Assembly: GCA_034434235.1 (NCBI GenBank)
Contig: DAOTZV010000182.1
Span: 10,713 to 74,712, forward strand
DNA from: Anaerolineae bacterium
GTDB taxonomy: Bacteria; Chloroflexota; Anaerolineae; CG2-30-64-16
DNA: 64,000 nucleotides
Reading direction: 5' to 3'
The position numbers and the translations under genes are program-made. Under the pieces are notes generated by a model. It ran no database searches, was not told the DNA's origin, and worked only from the letters and a program-made list of their open reading frames with translations. Shown here piece by piece: positions 10,501 through 57,632 of this stretch (position 1 is its first letter; the number at the start of each line of letters is the position of its first letter).

Positions 10501-11295
10501 TCAATCACCGTGATAGACGAGCGTGATGCCGAGTTCCTGGCAGCGTTCCCGCACCTCATCGCCGATGCTCATGGCGATCATGATGCCCTCCACCTTGACG
10601 CCCGGATTCAACGCCTGTACGAAGGCCACTTTCTCGTGTAGCCGATCTATATCTTCCCACTCGCAGTAACTTTTCACTTCAAAGACCGAGATCTGACCAT
10701 CCTGAGCAAGGATATCTATCTCGAATCGCCGTTGCCCCGGGAGGCCAACCACGCCCTTTTCGTCCACCATTCTCTGGCGCAGCCGAAGCTGATCGGGCTT
10801 GATGTCGGGCCGACGCAAGGCGACCCGCAACGCGCCGGCCACCACATCCTCCAGCCGGCGGCCCGAACGCCGCTGCAACCCTCCGACAACGCCCTCAACC
10901 CAATCGCGCAGATCGCTCATTTCTTGTTGCAGGCCTTCGAGGCGCCGATCCACCTCTTCGAAGCGCTGATCTACATGCTCGAAGCGCCGATCAATCTCTT
11001 CGAAGCGCCGGTCGATCTGCTCGAAGCGCCGATCAATCTCTTCGAAGCGCCGGTCGATCTGCTCGAAGCGTTGGTCGATCTGCTCGAAGCGTTGATCTGT
11101 CTTGGCGCTGAAGCGTCTGAATTCGCCGCGAAACTCCCGCATTTCCGCAAGGATCGCCGCCGTCTCTTCTTTGGTGGTGAAAACCCGCAGAAAAGCACGG
11201 AACGCGCGACGTTCCAGATCGGGGTCGCGTTCGATCATCTCCGGAAGCTGCTCTTCCAGAATATGCAAGACTTCTTCATCCTTCAATTTCAACAT
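10501..11295 (-). CDS. Coiled-coil protein: eight tandem heptad repeats (D-x-R-F-E-x-I) in the middle and a C-terminal PD-(D/E)xK-nuclease-like core (EIDIL...VFEVK)
   Basis: Translation reads DQRFEQI DQRFEQI DRRFEEI DRRFEQI DRRFEEI DRRFEHV DQRFEEV DRRLEGL. C-terminal RRFEIDILAQDGQISVFEVKSY fits the D...ExK nuclease motif. A hairpin plus T-tract terminator follows downstream. Confidence 0.6.
   Translation of the reverse strand: MLKLKDEEVLHILEEQLPEMIERDPDLERRAFRAFLRVFTTKEETAAILAEMREFRGEFRRFSAKTDQRFEQIDQRFEQIDRRFEEIDRRFEQIDRRFEEIDRRFEHVDQRFEEVDRRLEGLQQEMSDLRDWVEGVVGGLQRRSGRRLEDVVAGALRVALRRPDIKPDQLRLRQRMVDEKGVVGLPGQRRFEIDILAQDGQISVFEVKSYCEWEDIDRLHEKVAFVQALNPGVKVEGIMIAMSIGDEVRERCQELGITLVYHGD
10936..11096. 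repeat. Near-perfect 21-nt tandem repeat (~8 units, including an exact 42-bp duplication) inside the CDS above
   Basis: GAAGCGCCGATCAATCTCTTC and GAAGCGCCGGTCGATCTGCTC alternate. 10981-11022 is identical to 11023-11064. Confidence 0.85.
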
Positions 11296-14753: not shown

Positions 14754-14888
14754 GAGAGGCTCCTGAATCTTGGAAAGGTCTGCAACCGTTTTGGGCATTG
14801 TAGCACCATCGCCCAGGCGAAGCAAACCCCTGAAAAATGCCTTTGCGAATTTGACGAAGGCCGCGATTTTGCACTACACTGTACTTTG

Positions 14889-14991
14889 TAGACTCAGTAG
14901 ATCACAGATTCAAGCTCAGAGGGGGTCTGTGACCCCCGACCGCCGGTCACAGACCGGCTTGGAGCAGCAAAATTGTGATCTACTGAGACTG
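14889..14991. repeat. ~100-bp MITE-like element with ~16-bp terminal inverted repeats and an internal 11-bp-stem palindrome
   Basis: TIRs AGACTCAGTAGATCAC and GTGATCTACTGAGACT. Internal palindrome GGTCTGTGACC-CCCGACCGCC-GGTCACAGACC. The core 14894-14967 recurs, inverted, at 45970-46043. Confidence 0.8.
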
Positions 14992-15019: not shown

Positions 15020-15364
15020 ATGGACATCGCGAAGCTGTTCAACACCGATTTTCCGGCCTGGCTGGAAGCCAACGCAGAGGCGGCCCGACGGGTGGGCGCG
15101 AAGTACATCTTCAACATCACCGGCGAAGGGGGCGGCCAGTGGTTCCTCGACCTCTCGCGCACCGGCCCCAAGATCGAGCCGGCGTCCGGTCAGCGCGCCG
15201 ACTGCACGATCACGGTGAGCGCGGCCGACTTCGAGAAGCTGTGGGCCAATCCTTACATCGGAGAGTCCATGTATTATGCCGGCAAGATCTGGATCTCGGG
15301 CGATGAGATGCTCGCCATGAGCCTGCAGAACGTCTTCGCGCGGGTCAAATCGGCGGCCGGTTAA
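15020..15364 (+). CDS. SCP2 sterol-carrier-like domain protein
   Basis: AGGGAGGGA RBS, 114 aa, SCP2-like pattern (FNITGEGGGQWFLDL...ITVSAADFEKLW...GKIWISGD). Confidence 0.65.
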   Translation: MDIAKLFNTDFPAWLEANAEAARRVGAKYIFNITGEGGGQWFLDLSRTGPKIEPASGQRADCTITVSAADFEKLWANPYIGESMYYAGKIWISGDEMLAMSLQNVFARVKSAAG

Positions 15365-28715: not shown

Positions 28716-28860
28716 CTGTAGGGCGAGATTTATCTCGCCCTACAGGCTATGGAGAGGCGAGATGAATCTCGCCCTACGCGCGTCTTTGGAGGGGCGAGAT
28801 GAATCTCGCCCTACGCGCGTCTTTGGAGAGGCGAGATGAATCTCGCCCTACACGCCTTCC
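28716..28860. repeat. Array of four related hairpin-containing repeats, with 37-bp units, between convergent genes
   Basis: CTGTAGGGCGAGAT-TT-ATCTCGCCCTACAG at 28716-28745. Then AGGCGAGATGAATCTCGCCCTACGCGCGTCTTTGGAG repeated ~2.9 times from 28755 to 28860. The last unit supplies the TAG stop of the receiver gene. Confidence 0.85.
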
Positions 28861-41190: not shown

Positions 41191-41246
41191 CGTCGAACGC
41201 TGAGCGTCGGGCGTCGGGCGTCAAGCGTCAAACGTCAGGCGTCGGG
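41191..41246. repeat. Heptanucleotide CGTCRRR microsatellite (8 units) in the NUDIX 5' region, overlapping the DUF4129 gene's 3' end
   Basis: cgtcgaa cgctgag cgtcggg cgtcggg cgtcaag cgtcaaa cgtcagg cgtcggg. Confidence 0.8.
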
Positions 41247-42932
41247 GCCGGCTGTCCGGCGTCGGAGTTCTTGCATCAGCCGGCGCCAGATCGCCTGGAC
41301 GCCTTGGGCCTCGTCGGCCGAGATGGGCCGGCGATCGTAGCGGGCGGCCAGAAAGGCCGATGTGAGCGCCTCGACCTCGGCCCCGGCTTCGGGCCATGCG
41401 GCCTCGAGCTGCTGCGCGAACTCGGACGGGGTGCGGTGCGCCGGCCGGGCCACGCCCCGTTCGGCCGCGTGGCCGACCATCCGCAGGTAAAAGTAGCGCA
41501 CGCGCTCGCGCGGGGCCAGTGCACCCACGCGCACGCCGGCCGGGCGGAGCGAGGCGGCCGCGCGGCCGCGCGCTGCGGCCATCCGCCGGCGCACCGCGCC
41601 GGCCGCGGCCTGGAGCGCCGCGCCGGCCCGCGCCCAGCGCGCCCGCCACCAGTAGCGCAGCCGCATCAGCCAATCGCCGAGGCGCCCCCGCAACATGCCG
41701 TGCGCGCCGAGATAGGATAGCCCGAAATAAACGGCCACCAGCGCGATGATGCTCCACAGCACCGCGCCGCCCAGCCAATCGGGAAGCCAGCTCAGCGCTT
41801 CGGCCTGCGACGGCACCTGGGGCATCGCCGACAGGTCGGGCCGCGACCCCGCATCGATCTGCGTCAGGAAGCGCAGGGGCCACAGGAGCAGCGCCAGGAA
41901 CACCGCCAGCAGAAACATCAGCAGATAGCCCAGGCGCATGACCAGGGCCAACAGCGCCTCCACCGCGGCCGAGAGCCAGCTCGTCGTGCCCATGGGCAGA
42001 AACGCCGCGACCAGGCCGATCAACAGTACGGCGAGCAGGCTGTTCACGTGCCAGCGGCGGAGCACGACCGGCTGCACTTCCACATCCTGATTGTACCAGC
42101 GGCCGCGCAAGACCGCCAGCCGCGCCTGACTGATCAGCAGGAGGCCGGCCAGGAAATAGGCCAGCAACGCGGCGAGCAGTCCGGCCGGCAAGCCGAGGCC
42201 GCGCACGCCCAGCCGCAGGGCGCTGGCGGCGAAGTCCACGCGCGCCAGCGCCGCGAAGAGGACCAGGATCGCGCCGCCGGCCGTCCAATGCGCAACGAAG
42301 CGCGCCAGGATCTCGCTGCGCGGCATGGCCCGGCCGGCGCGCAACTGGCTGCGGCTTTCCCCCCACAGCACGCTCTCGTGCGCGGCGATCTCGTCCGGCT
42401 GCAACGCCAGGTCCAGGAAATCGCCGGCCATGCCCACCGCCAGCCCCCAGGCGATGAGGATCCAGACGCCGAAGATGGCGAACGGCGCGTCCAGGAACGC
42501 GAACGGCTCGCGCAACCAGAGCTGTACCTCGGCCATGCCGGGCCAACCGCTCCCGAAGGTCCACACGGCCAACCGGAACAGGATCAGCAGCACGGCGACC
42601 TCGCCCAGGCGATACGCCAGGCCGCGGCGATCGCGCCAGCTCGGCCGGCCGAGCTGCAACGTGCTGTAGACCCCCTCGAGCGCGGCCGCGAACGCGCCCG
42701 GCAACACATATCCCATGCGCCACGGCGCACCGATCAGATGCAACAGCGCCAGAGGACCGGCCACGACGCTTGCCGCCACCAGGGCGATCAACAGCGGCCG
42801 GAAGGCGCTGCTCACCCAGGCCGCGTCGAAGAAGTCCTGGTACGCGGGCCGCCGGCCGGGGAGAGGCCCCGTGACCCGACCGCCGTCGCGAGCTTCGGTC
42901 GCCGGGCTCGAAGCATCAGGCGTATGCGCCAC
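41235..42932 (-). CDS. DUF4129-domain polytopic membrane protein (partner of MoxR/DUF58)
   Basis: GAGGAGG RBS, then GTG at 42932. Multiple TM helices. C-terminal RYFYLRMVGHAAERG...RTPSEFAQQL...FLAARYDRRP matches the DUF4129 pattern. The in-frame upstream 180 codons of the ORF-track entry overlap DUF58 and look non-coding. Confidence 0.7.
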   Translation of the reverse strand: MAHTPDASSPATEARDGGRVTGPLPGRRPAYQDFFDAAWVSSAFRPLLIALVAASVVAGPLALLHLIGAPWRMGYVLPGAFAAALEGVYSTLQLGRPSWRDRRGLAYRLGEVAVLLILFRLAVWTFGSGWPGMAEVQLWLREPFAFLDAPFAIFGVWILIAWGLAVGMAGDFLDLALQPDEIAAHESVLWGESRSQLRAGRAMPRSEILARFVAHWTAGGAILVLFAALARVDFAASALRLGVRGLGLPAGLLAALLAYFLAGLLLISQARLAVLRGRWYNQDVEVQPVVLRRWHVNSLLAVLLIGLVAAFLPMGTTSWLSAAVEALLALVMRLGYLLMFLLAVFLALLLWPLRFLTQIDAGSRPDLSAMPQVPSQAEALSWLPDWLGGAVLWSIIALVAVYFGLSYLGAHGMLRGRLGDWLMRLRYWWRARWARAGAALQAAAGAVRRRMAAARGRAAASLRPAGVRVGALAPRERVRYFYLRMVGHAAERGVARPAHRTPSEFAQQLEAAWPEAGAEVEALTSAFLAARYDRRPISADEAQGVQAIWRRLMQELRRRTAGPDA

Positions 42933-45846: not shown

Positions 45847-45904
45847 CCGGCGGGCCGCGACAAGCGTTTTGTGGTATACTCAGACATCACGATTTCGTCA
45901 TCCA

Positions 45905-45936
45905 CGTGCCTGGCACTTCCGGAAGTGCCAGGCACG
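45905..45936. repeat. REP-like palindrome, family 2, upstream of the moxR cluster
   Basis: CGTGCCTGGCAC-TTCCGGAA-GTGCCAGGCACG. Confidence 0.7.
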
Positions 45937-45969
45937 TTCGGGAGATACCGGCGACACTCCTATTCGTTT

Positions 45970-46043
45970 CTGCTCCAAGCCGGTCTGTGACCGGCGGTCG
46001 GGGGTCACAGACCCCCTCTGAGCTTGAATCTGTGATCTACTGA
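45970..46043. repeat. Second (inverted, partial) copy of the 74-bp core of the MITE-like element, flanked by ~26-bp imperfect direct repeats
   Basis: Exact reverse complement of 14894-14967. Flanks GATACCGGCGACACTCCTATTCGTTTC (45944-45970) and GATACTGGCGACACTCCTATCTGTTCG (46042-46068). Confidence 0.85.
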
Positions 46044-46079
46044 TACTGGCGACACTCCTATCTGTTCGCGGAGGCCGAG

Positions 46080-46421
46080 ATGGCTCGCATTGTCTATTCG
46101 ACCGATCCCGATCCGGTTGTCCTGTGTCCGCGCTGCGGCCGCTCGCCGTGCGTGTGTCGGCAGATCAACCTGCCGCCGCACCAGCAGACCGCCTACATCA
46201 AGCGGGATCGCAAGGGTCGTGCCGGCAAGACCGTCACGGTGATCTACGGCCTGCAGCATACGCCGGCCGCCTTCAAGGAGCTATTGGTTGCGCTGAAGGA
46301 GACCTGCGGCGCCGGCGGCACGCTCAAGGAGAACGAGCTGGAGATCCAGGGCGATCAGCGGGAGAAGGTGGCCGCAAAGCTGAAGGCGCTGGGCTACAAG
46401 GTGAAGCTGGTGGGCGGCTGA
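46080..46421 (+). CDS. SUI1/YciH-family translation initiation factor
   Basis: 113 aa. N-terminal Cys cluster, then SUI1 fold (GRAGKTVTVI...TCGAGGTLKENELEIQGDQREKV). Confidence 0.8.
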   Translation: MARIVYSTDPDPVVLCPRCGRSPCVCRQINLPPHQQTAYIKRDRKGRAGKTVTVIYGLQHTPAAFKELLVALKETCGAGGTLKENELEIQGDQREKVAAKLKALGYKVKLVGG

Positions 46422-56111: not shown

Positions 56112-57632
56112 TCAACCGCGCGCCAGTTGCGGCACGATGAAGCGCAGCAGCGCGTAAAGGGACAAGATCGGCAGACCGGCAAACGGCAACGCAAACAGCA
56201 GGCCGTGCAAGACAGGCAACGGACGGCCGACCACCCGCTCGATCAGCGCCGGGCCGAAATCCAGGACCGCCACGCCGGCCGCAAACGCCACGGTGATCGC
56301 CAGCGGCCATTTCGGCAATCCCGCGCCGCTCAAGACCCCCCAGGCGGCCAGCGCAACGGTCAAGACCCCCAATCCCGCCGCCAGATAGCGCCCCACTCCC
56401 CCGGCCACCACCGCCTCCCAACCCACCGCAAACGCGAACGCCAGCGGGATCAGCGCGGTGAACAGATAGCGGCCCTGATGCTGCACGAACTGGGTGTTAT
56501 ACCAGACGTAGGTGAGGAGCGTCAGGAGCACGGATGAGAGCAGAAGGAGAAAGGCGCGGCGCTGTGAAACGTGAAACGTGAAATGTGAAACGTGATGTTT
56601 GACGTTTGACGTTTGACGTTCGACGCGCATGATCGCGCCGGCCGCGGCCAGGCCGCTCAGCAGGGCCAGGGCGAAGTAGATGCGGCTATCCATAAAGACG
56701 CCCAGCCAGCCGAAGACTCCCCAGAAGCTCTTGAAGGTGAACTCGATCGCGCGGCGGAGATACGCGGCCCAGCCGACCTGCGCCAGAAACTCGCCGGTGC
56801 GGGTTTGCCCCACCACGATTTGGTCGTGCCGGATCAACCCCAGGAAATCGGGCCAACCGTAGACCGCCAGATTGCGCGCATACCACGGCAGGGCGATCAG
56901 CGCCAGCGGCCCGACGACCAGGGCCGCCTCCAGGAGCATGGGGCGCCATCCGACCCGCAGCCGACGCCAACGCCAGATCAGCACGCCCGCGGCAAGCGCC
57001 ACCGCGATGTAGGCCGTCGTCTTGGTGATCAGGATCAGGCCCAACAGGATGCCCAGGATGGCCGATGAACGTCGGCCCGCGGCCGCGGGCGCCAACACCT
57101 GGCCGATCAAGATGTAGAGCACGACTGCGAAGAGCAGCTCGGCCAATACATCGTTGCCCACCTGCGAGACGGTCGCCAGATGTTGGGGCAAAAACGCCAC
57201 GAAAGCCGCCGTGGCCAGCGCCAGATGCCCGCGGCGCGGGGCCAGCCGCCGCGCGATCGCGTAGGCCGGCAACACCACGCCCGCGCCCAACAACACCGAA
57301 ACCAGCCGCAACGGCAACAGCGCGCCTTGCGTCAGGCCATACACCGGCGCCAGCAACGCGTAGTAGAGCGGCGGCTGATGGAATTCGTAGCGGATCGGAT
57401 CGATGCTCAGCCCGGCCGGAAACCGGCGGCTCTTGATTTCTTCCAGATATCCATGCGGATAGTCGCCCATTTGCAGCACGGGAAAGCTGGCCGTCGTGGC
57501 GACGAAACGGATATAGTTGTAATGCGCCGGCTCGTCGGGCGCCTGCCAGGCCGGCGTGCGCCACGCGAAGAGGGTGGCGAGCGCCAGATACGCAATGAGG
57601 ACGACCAGGAGGACGAAATGACGAAAACGCAT
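56112..57632 (-). CDS. GT-C-fold glycosyltransferase (PMT/ArnT-like, GT39/GT83-type) membrane protein
   Basis: ~11 TM helices, N-terminal DE-containing first loop (WQAPDEPAHY). A heptamer-repeat tract is inserted in-frame. Confidence 0.7.
   Translation of the reverse strand: MRFRHFVLLVVLIAYLALATLFAWRTPAWQAPDEPAHYNYIRFVATTASFPVLQMGDYPHGYLEEIKSRRFPAGLSIDPIRYEFHQPPLYYALLAPVYGLTQGALLPLRLVSVLLGAGVVLPAYAIARRLAPRRGHLALATAAFVAFLPQHLATVSQVGNDVLAELLFAVVLYILIGQVLAPAAAGRRSSAILGILLGLILITKTTAYIAVALAAGVLIWRWRRLRVGWRPMLLEAALVVGPLALIALPWYARNLAVYGWPDFLGLIRHDQIVVGQTRTGEFLAQVGWAAYLRRAIEFTFKSFWGVFGWLGVFMDSRIYFALALLSGLAAAGAIMRVERQTSNVKHHVSHFTFHVSQRRAFLLLLSSVLLTLLTYVWYNTQFVQHQGRYLFTALIPLAFAFAVGWEAVVAGGVGRYLAAGLGVLTVALAAWGVLSGAGLPKWPLAITVAFAAGVAVLDFGPALIERVVGRPLPVLHGLLFALPFAGLPILSLYALLRFIVPQLARG
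56564..56624. repeat. Heptanucleotide repeats (GTGAAAC x4 followed by GTTTGAC x4) inside the glycosyltransferase CDS
   Basis: gtgaaac gtgaaac gtgaaat gtgaaac gtga tgtttgac gtttgac gtttgac gttcgac. Reverse complement gives CGTCAAA units, as at 658-678 and 41191-41246. They encode ...RQTSNVKHHVSHFTFHV... in the protein. Confidence 0.85.

Follow-up and report, generated by a model that had tools for sequence, protein, structure and literature searches.

Bacterial transposable elements of the miniature inverted-repeat kind (MITEs) that are located in mRNA leaders and fold into long hairpins include Correia/NEMIS of Neisseria, ERIC/IRU, and RUP of Streptococcus pneumoniae. Correia and RUP generate TA duplications and have insertion sequence (IS) partners of the IS630 type. 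For the ISH3 family of ISs, the target duplication given in ISfinder is 4-5 bp. Halobacterium elements of the ISH3 class were described with the 5-bp target site duplications (TSDs) AAATT, ATGAT, AGTTT and AGTAT (PMC7002104), and a further prokaryotic MITE for comparison is QMITE2 of Coxiella (review PMC10969869). Here we analysed a 91-bp element present in a stretch of 64,000 nt from an Anaerolineae bacterium (contig DAOTZV010000182.1, positions 10,713 to 74,712), which is referred to as the window; metagenome and genome loci compared with it are cited by L-numbers. Like Correia/NEMIS, ERIC/IRU, RUP and QMITE, the element is about 100 bp long, non-coding and intergenic, and it has terminal inverted repeats (TIRs) and TSDs. 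As for those MITEs, its transcript is predicted to form a very stable stem-loop, and mobilisation in trans by an IS transposase is presumed. It differs from them in the family of the partner IS, in being GC-rich rather than AT-rich, and in having a swappable interior that resembles a pair of repetitive extragenic palindromic (REP) hairpins. We concluded that the element is very probably a non-coding MITE of 91 bp, which either derives from an ISH3-family IS or, as a parasite, shares the ends of one, and that it is active or recently active in the Anaerolineae population. It represents neither a new mechanism nor a new kind of gene, but an ordinary, well documented mobile element, tied to an IS family better known from archaea and cyanobacteria.

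Among the inverted repeats of the window, the longest has arms of 77 nt at 14894-14970 and 45967-46043, which are 99% complementary. When the two copies, hereafter A and B, were compared by BLAST, 73 nt aligned in inverted orientation with 100% identity (45970-46042). The core of 74 bp, identical in reverse complement at two loci, which a sequence-only reading of the window had reported, is therefore real. A 32-nt hairpin core occurred exactly twice, against 0 expected from 100 shuffles, and the TIR 11-mer CAGTAGATCAC was found at 14895 on the forward strand and at 14975-14985 and 46032-46042 on the reverse strand (chance expectation 0.32). A TIR scan of the window with two mismatches allowed gave only noise. 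The TIR of copy A is perfect over 11 bp (CAGTAGATCAC / GTGATCTACTG) and reaches 13 bp with added A-T and G.T pairs. The sequence-only reading had described a TIR of 16 bp (AGACTCAGTAGATCAC / GTGATCTACTGAGACT); these ends consist of a 5-bp TSD, AGACT, followed by the 11-bp TIR, and they matched at only 15/16 positions because the target duplication had been included. Copy A folded at -54.4 kcal/mol (z = -7.1), with a range of -48 to -54 kcal/mol across folds, in a window of 66.7% G+C. The 91 bp between the TSD copies leave no room for a transposase gene (the partner IS encodes about 386 aa). The features of copy A are listed below.

14890..14894, no strand: left TSD copy AGACT; a single AGACT in the empty allele L111 (TTTGTAGACTGTTTACC), on both sides in the filled alleles.
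14895..14985, + strand: full-length copy A of the MITE (91 bp), CAGTAGATCAC…GTGATCTACTG; TIR matches, fold, identical copies elsewhere, absent from L111.
14895..14907, + strand: left TIR; matches the ISH3-family IS end CAGTAGATCGCAAATT and the IS relic ends CAGTAGATCACAAAG.
14973..14985, - strand: right TIR; TIR scan and fold.
14986..14990, no strand: right TSD copy AGACT; comparison with empty and filled alleles.

Alleles with and without the element were found within the species. Proteins that share at least 90% identity with those of the window bear the name 'Anaerolineae bacterium' in NCBI metagenome-assembled genomes. Twenty same-species metagenome contigs were chosen by exact matches to the SCP2 and SUI1 proteins of the window, and their upstream regions were compared. 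At locus A, L111 was empty and read uninterrupted ...CACTGTACTTTGTAGACTGTTTACCCAC... with the target TTTGTAGACTGTTTACC, whereas the window and L105-L108, L110 and L112 were filled and read TTTGT[AGACT]CAGTAGATCAC...GTGATCTACTG[AGACT]GTTTACC. Since AGACT is present once in L111 and twice in the filled alleles, the insertion at locus A consisted of 91 bp and a 5-bp duplication. At locus B, L117, L121 and L122 were empty (...GGGAGATACCGGCGACACTCC...), L116 carried the complete 91-bp element with ATACT on both sides, and a truncated form was shared by the window and L115. The states of the two loci were mixed within single samples: A was empty and B full in JGI sample 3300014149, and A was filled and B empty in samples 3300060601 and ERZ27247220, indicating that the two insertions segregate independently. 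The empty sites at both loci, together with the full copy at locus B, indicated that the element is mobile. The occurrence of empty, full and rearranged alleles makes this uncultured lineage of Anaerolineae a clean case of MITE activity at the population level.

Many contigs ended inside the element, as expected of a repeat that breaks assemblies, and the element explains the assembly breaks at these intergenic regions of this organism. In L114:786-876 and L109:1-240, and in L229 set against L192:6855, the two flanks of one MITE copy came from different loci; in L114, for example, the left flank is that of L230 and the right flank that of locus A of the window. Such mixed-flank contigs result from chimeric assembly over the repeat or else from recombination of one copy with another.

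The two copies in the window belong to a large family. A metagenome scan for both end 11-mers at a spacing of 55-85 nt yielded at least 118 loci, against about 2 by chance according to our own arithmetic. The sequence-only reading had set against a mobile element the case of two copies only, with no TIR/TSD pattern elsewhere; what was found instead is this number of loci with consistent TIRs and TSDs. Copies of 91 bp that were 100% identical to that of the window were present at at least 12 distinct flanks, on metagenome contigs that are not necessarily from one genome, and identical copies at many sites indicate recent bursts. Among the matches listed, a perfect 5-bp TSD was present at 79 of the 108 unique sites with both flanks, and controls with shifted offsets gave 0-3; at the remaining sites, the flanking pentamers mostly differed by one base. 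The 79 duplications gave the palindromic consensus AGWCT (A in 76, G in 56, W in 69, C in 47 and T in 77), with a pyrimidine before and a purine after the pentamer, so that the target can be written Y-AGWCT-R. Atypical pentamers, namely GGTCT, AGACC (twice), GGTTT and TTTAT, were also duplicated. Because pentamers without the A...T frame are duplicated too, the duplication really spans 5 bp, as opposed to 3 bp adjoining a longer TIR. The insertion rule is thus AGWCT targets with a 5-bp duplication. A long open reading frame (ORF) spanned the reconstructed empty site in 25/54 cases, compared with 86/108 control positions 350 nt away, although this comparison is a rough measure in GC-rich DNA.

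Three composites of 180-243 bp with the same TIRs and matching 5-bp TSDs (L125:6-185, L126:362-587 and L199:1698-1940) look like insertions of one MITE into another or of MITEs in tandem. A near-identical relative of the window MITE was present in another Anaerolineae locus, L067, with the TSD AATCT. In the literature searched, which did not extend to ISfinder, no published description of this MITE family and no paper on MITEs with TSDs in Chloroflexi was found, and the strings GGTCTGTGACC (a hairpin 11-mer of the interior) and CAGTAGATCAC matched unrelated primers only.

Ends of the same kind were found on ISs of the ISH3 family. Between TIR pairs in the loci compared, no full-length IS was obtained, only the nested or dimeric MITEs (L125, L126 and L199) and chance pairs. 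A solo end at L130:11694 reads CAGTAGATCACAAAGC, and an ORF begins 80 nt further on; its first 122 residues matched the NCBIfam profile NF033541, 'ISH3 family transposase', at E = 1.8e-9 (profile positions 2-82). Homologous relics in L243-L247 repeat this end, equally far from the start codon, and IS relics carry the exact spelling of the MITE end, CAGTAGATCACAAAG. With the 122-aa N-terminal part as a query, only fragments or relics of up to 204 aa were retrieved, whereas a frameshift-repaired query of 387 aa reached intact proteins. It retrieved 2573 relatives, most of which, among the matches listed, were 384-388 aa long; the intact homologues of 384-386 aa (64-83% identity for those of 386 aa) were named 'ISH3 family transposase' by NCBI where they were named. 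Complete ISs were found in L249 (Chroococcidiopsis cubana; 1241 bp, TIR CAGTAGATCGA, TSD AAGCT), in L250 (Logan assembly; 1257 bp, TSD ATAGT) and in L254 (1238 bp, clean TSD AGATT). All three share the 16-bp TIR CAGTAGATCGCAAATT. In the intact-copy contigs L252-L258, the IS measures 1238 bp, this TIR is perfect, and the flanks have A as their first and T as their last base. In L249 and L250 the transposase is split into two ORFs, which jointly cover positions 2-297 of the 298 of NF033541 (2-128 and 128-297 in L249) and carry PF01609.

The IS TIR CAGTAGATCGCAAATT and the MITE start CAGTAGATCACAAATT (e.g., L133 and L151) are identical at 15/16 positions, and the comparison with IS families that the sequence-only reading had proposed as a check thus pointed to ISH3. 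The ends of ISH3-family ISs (ISH3B/C and ISHsal1 of Halobacterium; the bacterial 'ISH3 family transposase ISMbu7') have the form CAGTAGATC[A/G]CAAATT and agree with the MITE at 15/16 positions. The MITE and these ISs are also alike in the 5-bp length of the duplication and in a preference for targets with A at the start and T at the end. They differ in that the MITE is 91 bp and non-coding, while the ISs are 1238-1257 bp and encode a DDE transposase of 384-386 aa. The interior of the MITE had no obvious resemblance by eye to that of the IS, and a simple internal deletion was not evident. Since the IS and the MITE share their ends, duplication length and target preference, an ISH3-family IS is suggested as the partner. 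In Chroococcidiopsis cubana, a fragment of a Y1_Tnp (PF01797) gene lies about 140 bp from an ISH3-family IS (L248:1960-2301), where several further transposase genes are clustered; in such an IS-rich region the proximity is probably coincidental.

The MITE would most likely be mobilised in trans by a transposase of the ISH3 family. This DDE transposase, whose gene would lie in another part of the genome or in that of a co-resident organism, would bind the TIRs of 11-16 bp (CAGTAGATCAC[A/G]AATT) and would excise or copy the MITE, by cut-and-paste or by replicative transposition. Insertion would follow at a 5-bp staggered cut in targets like Y-AGWCT-R, by which those 5 bp would be duplicated. 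We infer that the source genome has such a transposase and that an enzyme of this kind moves the MITE.

Several observations weigh against this assignment. No ISH3-family transposase was encoded in the window or in about 60 kb of same-species contigs, and the resident partner is an assumption. This result agrees with the sequence-only reading, which had noted the lack of a transposase, and it means that the element is non-autonomous here. At TIR position 10, the full-length ISs recovered show G in place of A; the exact spelling of the MITE end was seen only in truncated IS copies, cut by the contig end in L130 and by decay in L244-L247. The homologues named ISH3 by NCBI are mostly cyanobacterial. 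The split ORFs scored 96 and 117.6 bits each, below the NCBIfam cut-off of 225. Several metagenome copies of the IS have non-matching flanks, probably by chimeric assembly, which weakens the TSD count of the IS. Finally, the rearrangement behind copy B, described below, lacks an exact explanation, as a model with TTTGC microhomology is off by one base. The non-autonomous miniature element that the sequence-only reading had proposed is nevertheless supported by the TIRs, the 5-bp TSD, the empty and filled alleles, the at least 12 sites with identical copies, the at least 118 loci that share the ends, and the ISH3-type ends.

The ends of the family are constant, while the interiors fall into at least eight unrelated types among 78 distinct sequences, all strongly self-complementary. 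In the group of the window and in three related groups, a GCTC/GAGC stem surrounds two short hairpins, which are located in copy A as follows.

14921..14937, + strand: interior hairpin 1, GGGGGTC-TGT-GACCCCC; minimum free energy structure, with compensatory changes at 4/7 pairs across subfamilies.
14943..14957, + strand: interior hairpin 2, CCGGTC-ACA-GACCGG; minimum free energy structure and subfamily alignment.

The shape of this two-hairpin interior is conserved, and its sequence varies between subfamilies. When 35 two-hairpin elements were aligned, 93% of the cells were paired, compared with 27-43% when the partners were slid. Changes on both sides were seen at eight pairs; in hairpin 1, A-T was replaced by G-C and T-A by C-G in ten sequences each. 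A hairpin with an 11-bp stem, as drawn in the sequence-only reading, is possible for the core, but the comparative data favour two conserved hairpins of 6-7 bp, and the two-hairpin model is better supported than the single stem. Since palindromic DNA keeps its pairing on both strands, the compensatory changes are no proof of selection on an RNA.

Each copy occupies an intergenic region with divergent genes on its two sides. For copy A these are a gene for a GH51-type arabinofuranosidase (- strand) and an SCP2-domain gene (ATG at 15020), and the copy is 30 nt upstream of the SCP2 start codon. For copy B they are a gene for a MoxR-type AAA protein (- strand) and one for SUI1/YciH (ATG at 46080), and the insertion at locus B is 33 nt upstream of the SUI1 start codon. 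Pfam matches agreed with the gene names GH51, SCP2, moxR and SUI1 given in the sequence-only reading. The two copies are opposite in orientation relative to their downstream genes. A candidate promoter was found near copy A.

14851..14880, + strand: promoter-like site TTGACG-18-TACACT, outside the element; consensus match only, 1 site against 0.2 expected.

Copy A starts 9 nt downstream of the end of this site, and we infer that it lies within the presumed 5' leader of the SCP2 gene. It would then probably add a very stable hairpin of about 90 nt (predicted at about -48 kcal/mol) to the SCP2 mRNA leader. A terminator scan found no terminator-like site. The alleles with and without the element are a natural resource for the effect of a leader hairpin of about 90 nt on the expression of the SCP2-domain and SUI1/YciH genes. 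In the population variant L117 (L117:1-2814), the moxR gene beside locus B is cut to 165 aa, and a gene for an IS1595-family DDE transposase (510 aa) and a phage-integrase gene adjoin the truncated moxR; this is a separate insertion event.

Enzymes of the Y1 HUH type, as in IS200/IS605-like single-strand transposition, are not known to duplicate the target and insert next to a fixed short target. One of them, the REP-associated tyrosine transposase (RAYT), would mobilise the element as single-stranded DNA if it were a REP doublet forming a hairpin (REPIN), that is, inverted REP hairpins with a GTAG tag. The interior is in fact an inverted doublet of short palindromes, as in the REPIN architecture, and GTAG...CTAC is present at the outer ends (CAGTAGATCAC). 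The pair GGTCTGTGACC...GGTCACAGACC recurs in GTAG-tagged REP-like hairpins of Methylophilaceae, Opitutales, Planctomycetes, Chthoniobacterales and Acidobacteria, and sister MITE subfamilies have typical GTAG and palindrome dimers inside (L196 and L200). The variable 5-bp duplication at 79/108 sites and the single-copy target in the empty alleles, however, speak against such a mode of transposition. Moreover, the conserved part of the family is its ends, which match a DDE (ISH3) IS, whereas the hairpins, which a RAYT needs, vary. GTAG lies inside the TIR, 26 nt from the stem of hairpin 1, while in the REP families described in PMC3733652 it directly adjoins the stem or is separated from it by 2 nt. 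In 104 loci with the hairpin pair and in the window, a six-frame scan found no HUH motif and tblastn with an E. coli YafM probe gave no match; when the ORFs near the hairpins were clustered all against all, no transposase recurred. The element therefore resembles REPINs and GTAG-tagged REP dimers (PMC3116915, PMC3733652) in its two inverted palindromes, which can form one long or two short hairpins, in its outer GTAG...CTAC and in the related 11-mer hairpins in GTAG-tagged repeats of other phyla, and differs from them as a MITE with 5-bp TSDs, TIRs of the DDE-IS type, GTAG away from the stem, and no RAYT found in the 104 loci and the window. REP dimers embedded in longer palindromes are on record in PMC3733652, among them the GTAG-15 dimers of Anabaena variabilis, in which an outer long inverted repeat surrounds a REP-like hairpin dimer as one unit; the outer repeat of the MITE is an IS end with a TSD, and the passage on the Anabaena composite gives no transposase or TSD. 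REP/RAYT mobilisation of the whole element was rejected in view of the TSDs and the IS ends, and we consider a REPIN-type element very unlikely; a REP or REPIN origin may hold for the interior alone.

A small structured RNA gene or cis-regulatory leader in two copies, kept identical by selection on the RNA, would account for the very stable predicted fold (z about -7), for the compensatory changes in the hairpins (93% paired against 27-43% when slid), and for the position of both copies just upstream of start codons, where copy A is probably transcribed as a leader. The same pairing is expected of palindromic DNA with or without selection on RNA, and the rest of the evidence argues otherwise. 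The sequence-only reading had raised a known RNA family as a possibility; no Rfam match was obtained for the whole window at gathering thresholds, and at both loci with E up to 10 only chance-level matches to miRNA and lncRNA families appeared. The window also contains no tRNA or tmRNA gene, and no terminator-like site accompanies the copies. The copies are opposite in orientation to their downstream genes, the element is missing at either site in some same-species strains, interiors are unrelated between subfamilies with the ends fixed, and the copies are flanked by target duplications, which are unexpected for a gene family. A structured small-RNA gene family, which had been offered beside the miniature element, is thus not needed, and the presence/absence polymorphism, the insertion in either orientation and the swapped interiors fit it poorly; we give it slightly less credit still than the REPIN-type element. 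Least credible of all is a regulatory DNA cassette, in which the GGTC-N3-GACC palindromes would be operators of a dimeric transcription factor at divergent promoters. The centres of the palindromes, at 14929 and 14950, are 21 bp or two helical turns apart, both copies are in divergent intergenic regions, and the 11-mer recurs in many phyla. Identity of 100% over 73-77 nt including the spacers is, however, unexpected for operators, the hairpin sequences and the spacing between the hairpins differ between sister subfamilies, and the presence/absence polymorphism, TSDs and IS-type ends explain the distribution without a regulator. A MITE with ISH3-type ends remained the preferred reading.

The hairpin pair itself was found in unrelated repeats. 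When a genome collection was scanned with the pattern GGTCTGTGACC-N4-20-GGTCACAGACC, at least 104 loci were obtained, against less than 1 by chance according to our own estimate; as the scan fixed both 11-mers, their conservation is by construction, but their abundance is not. More than 25 of the loci, among the matches listed, came from a single metagenome-assembled genome, 'Chloroflexi bacterium HGW-Chloroflexi-1' (L017-L095, PHCA01 contigs). They belong to a different MITE family of about 100-115 bp with the TIR GTATCTTCTCA and the same GGTCTGTGACC…GGTCACAGACC pair in its centre (e.g., L039:4255-4355), whose TSDs are 8-9 bp and were perfect in 5/16. Multi-copy GTAG…CTAC hairpins were found in Methylophilaceae/Methylotenera (L002, L012, L022, L029, L041, L044, L056, L062, L070, L079, L086 and L091), in Opitutales (L005, L016, L030, L072, L075, L084, L092 and L099), in Planctomycetes (L009, L023, L046 and L050), and also in Chthoniobacterales and Acidobacteria. 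One example reads TGTAGGAGC-GGTCTGTGACC-GCGAA…TTCGC-GGTCACAGACC-GCTCCTACA. The frame in Methylophilaceae, TGTAGGAGC-palindrome-GCGAA, is the classical Pseudomonas REP frame with a different palindrome. An HUH motif scan of the 8-kb flanks of the GTAG…CTAC hairpin loci found no RAYT. Sister MITE subfamilies of the ISH3 type carry other REP-like doublets in the same position.

The recurrence of the hairpin pair in unrelated mobile repeats across phyla is the point of possibly wider import, and may reflect capture of a module by MITEs, a shared binding protein, or convergence. That the doublet GGTC-TGT-GACC / GGTC-ACA-GACC is an independent portable module, and not mere filler of the MITE, is a tentative proposal that we hold to be rather improbable. 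If it were true, REPIN-like elements would repeatedly insert into MITEs or be captured by them, or, alternatively, the hairpin would be recognised by some protein of wide conservation, either a RAYT or a host factor. With recognition by a protein, MITEs would disseminate a structure with a function, which might be to stabilise mRNA, to terminate transcription or to bind a protein. In Streptomyces (L004, L045, L049, L052, L058 and L096), a hairpin with a 17-bp stem and the same 11-mers lies beside the 3' end of a tRNA gene; it is seemingly one orthologous locus in several species, probably a terminator and unrelated to the MITE.

In all, three copies of MITEs are present in the window: the intact copy A, the rearranged copy B, and an older decayed copy next to copy B. 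The features of locus B are as follows.

45971..46042, - strand: MITE copy B, 72 nt, inverted relative to copy A, with one TIR (46032-46042) and both hairpins kept; repeat alignment, BLAST and TIR scan.
46043..46047, no strand: ATACT, the retained TSD copy; L116 reads GGGAG[ATACT]CAGTAG…CTACTG[ATACT]GGCGAC.
45945..45970, no strand: left direct repeat, ATACC GGCGACACTCCTATTCGTTTC, standing where copy B has lost its arm; same spelling as the empty alleles.
46043..46069, no strand: right direct repeat, ATACT GGCGACACTCCTATCTGTTCG, the original flank; its spelling is that of the filled allele L116.
45881..45937, + strand: older decayed MITE copy of a sister subfamily; aligned with the complete MITEs L188 and L193.

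Copy B lacks 18-19 nt at one terminus, as comparison with the full-length L116 allele confirmed for the missing terminus described in the sequence-only reading. Because one TIR is lost, this copy should be immobile. In place of the element's terminal 19 nt (CAGTAGATCACAATTTTGC in L116), the window allele has 21 nt, GGCGACACTCCTATTCGTTTC, which repeat the DNA that ordinarily comes after the insertion site. The imperfect direct repeats of about 26 bp noticed earlier do bracket copy B, but they are duplicated target DNA in a rearranged copy, not a TSD. The left repeat matches the spelling of the empty alleles (ATACC..., TATTCGTT) and the right repeat that of L116 (ATACT..., TATCTGTT). Copy B probably arose by illegitimate recombination, or by repair, involving one filled and one empty allele. 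A model with TTTGC microhomology at the junction was rejected, as it predicts CGTTTGCTGCTCC, with one extra G, where the window has CGTTTCTGCTCC.

The decayed copy has a degenerate left end, CAG-ACATCAC, at 45881 and a perfect palindromic core of 34 nt, ACGTGCCTGGCACTTCCGGAAGTGCCAGGCACGT (45904-45937); no right end was recognisable in 45881-45937. In its subfamily (L188/L193), the core palindrome ACGTGCCTGGCAC...GTGCCAGGCACGT lies between perfect CAGTAGATCAC ends. The decayed copy is present in all alleles of locus B, including those that are empty of the 91-bp element, and the younger element, copy B, was inserted beside it.

Other repeats were noticed in the window. At 28722-28857, a unit of 37 nt is repeated four times in tandem, with a hairpin GGCGAGAT-(G/T)(A/T)-ATCTCGCC followed by CTAC; this may be another REP-like or terminator-like array, and its sequence is unrelated to the MITE. 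At 10916-11123, at least seven units of 21 nt (TCGAAGCGCCGATCAATCTCT/GC…) are arranged in tandem and would be in-frame, heptad-like repeats if coding. The motif GCGTCAAGCGTCAAACG occurs in direct and inverted orientation at 654-691, 41208-41259 and 56600-56626.

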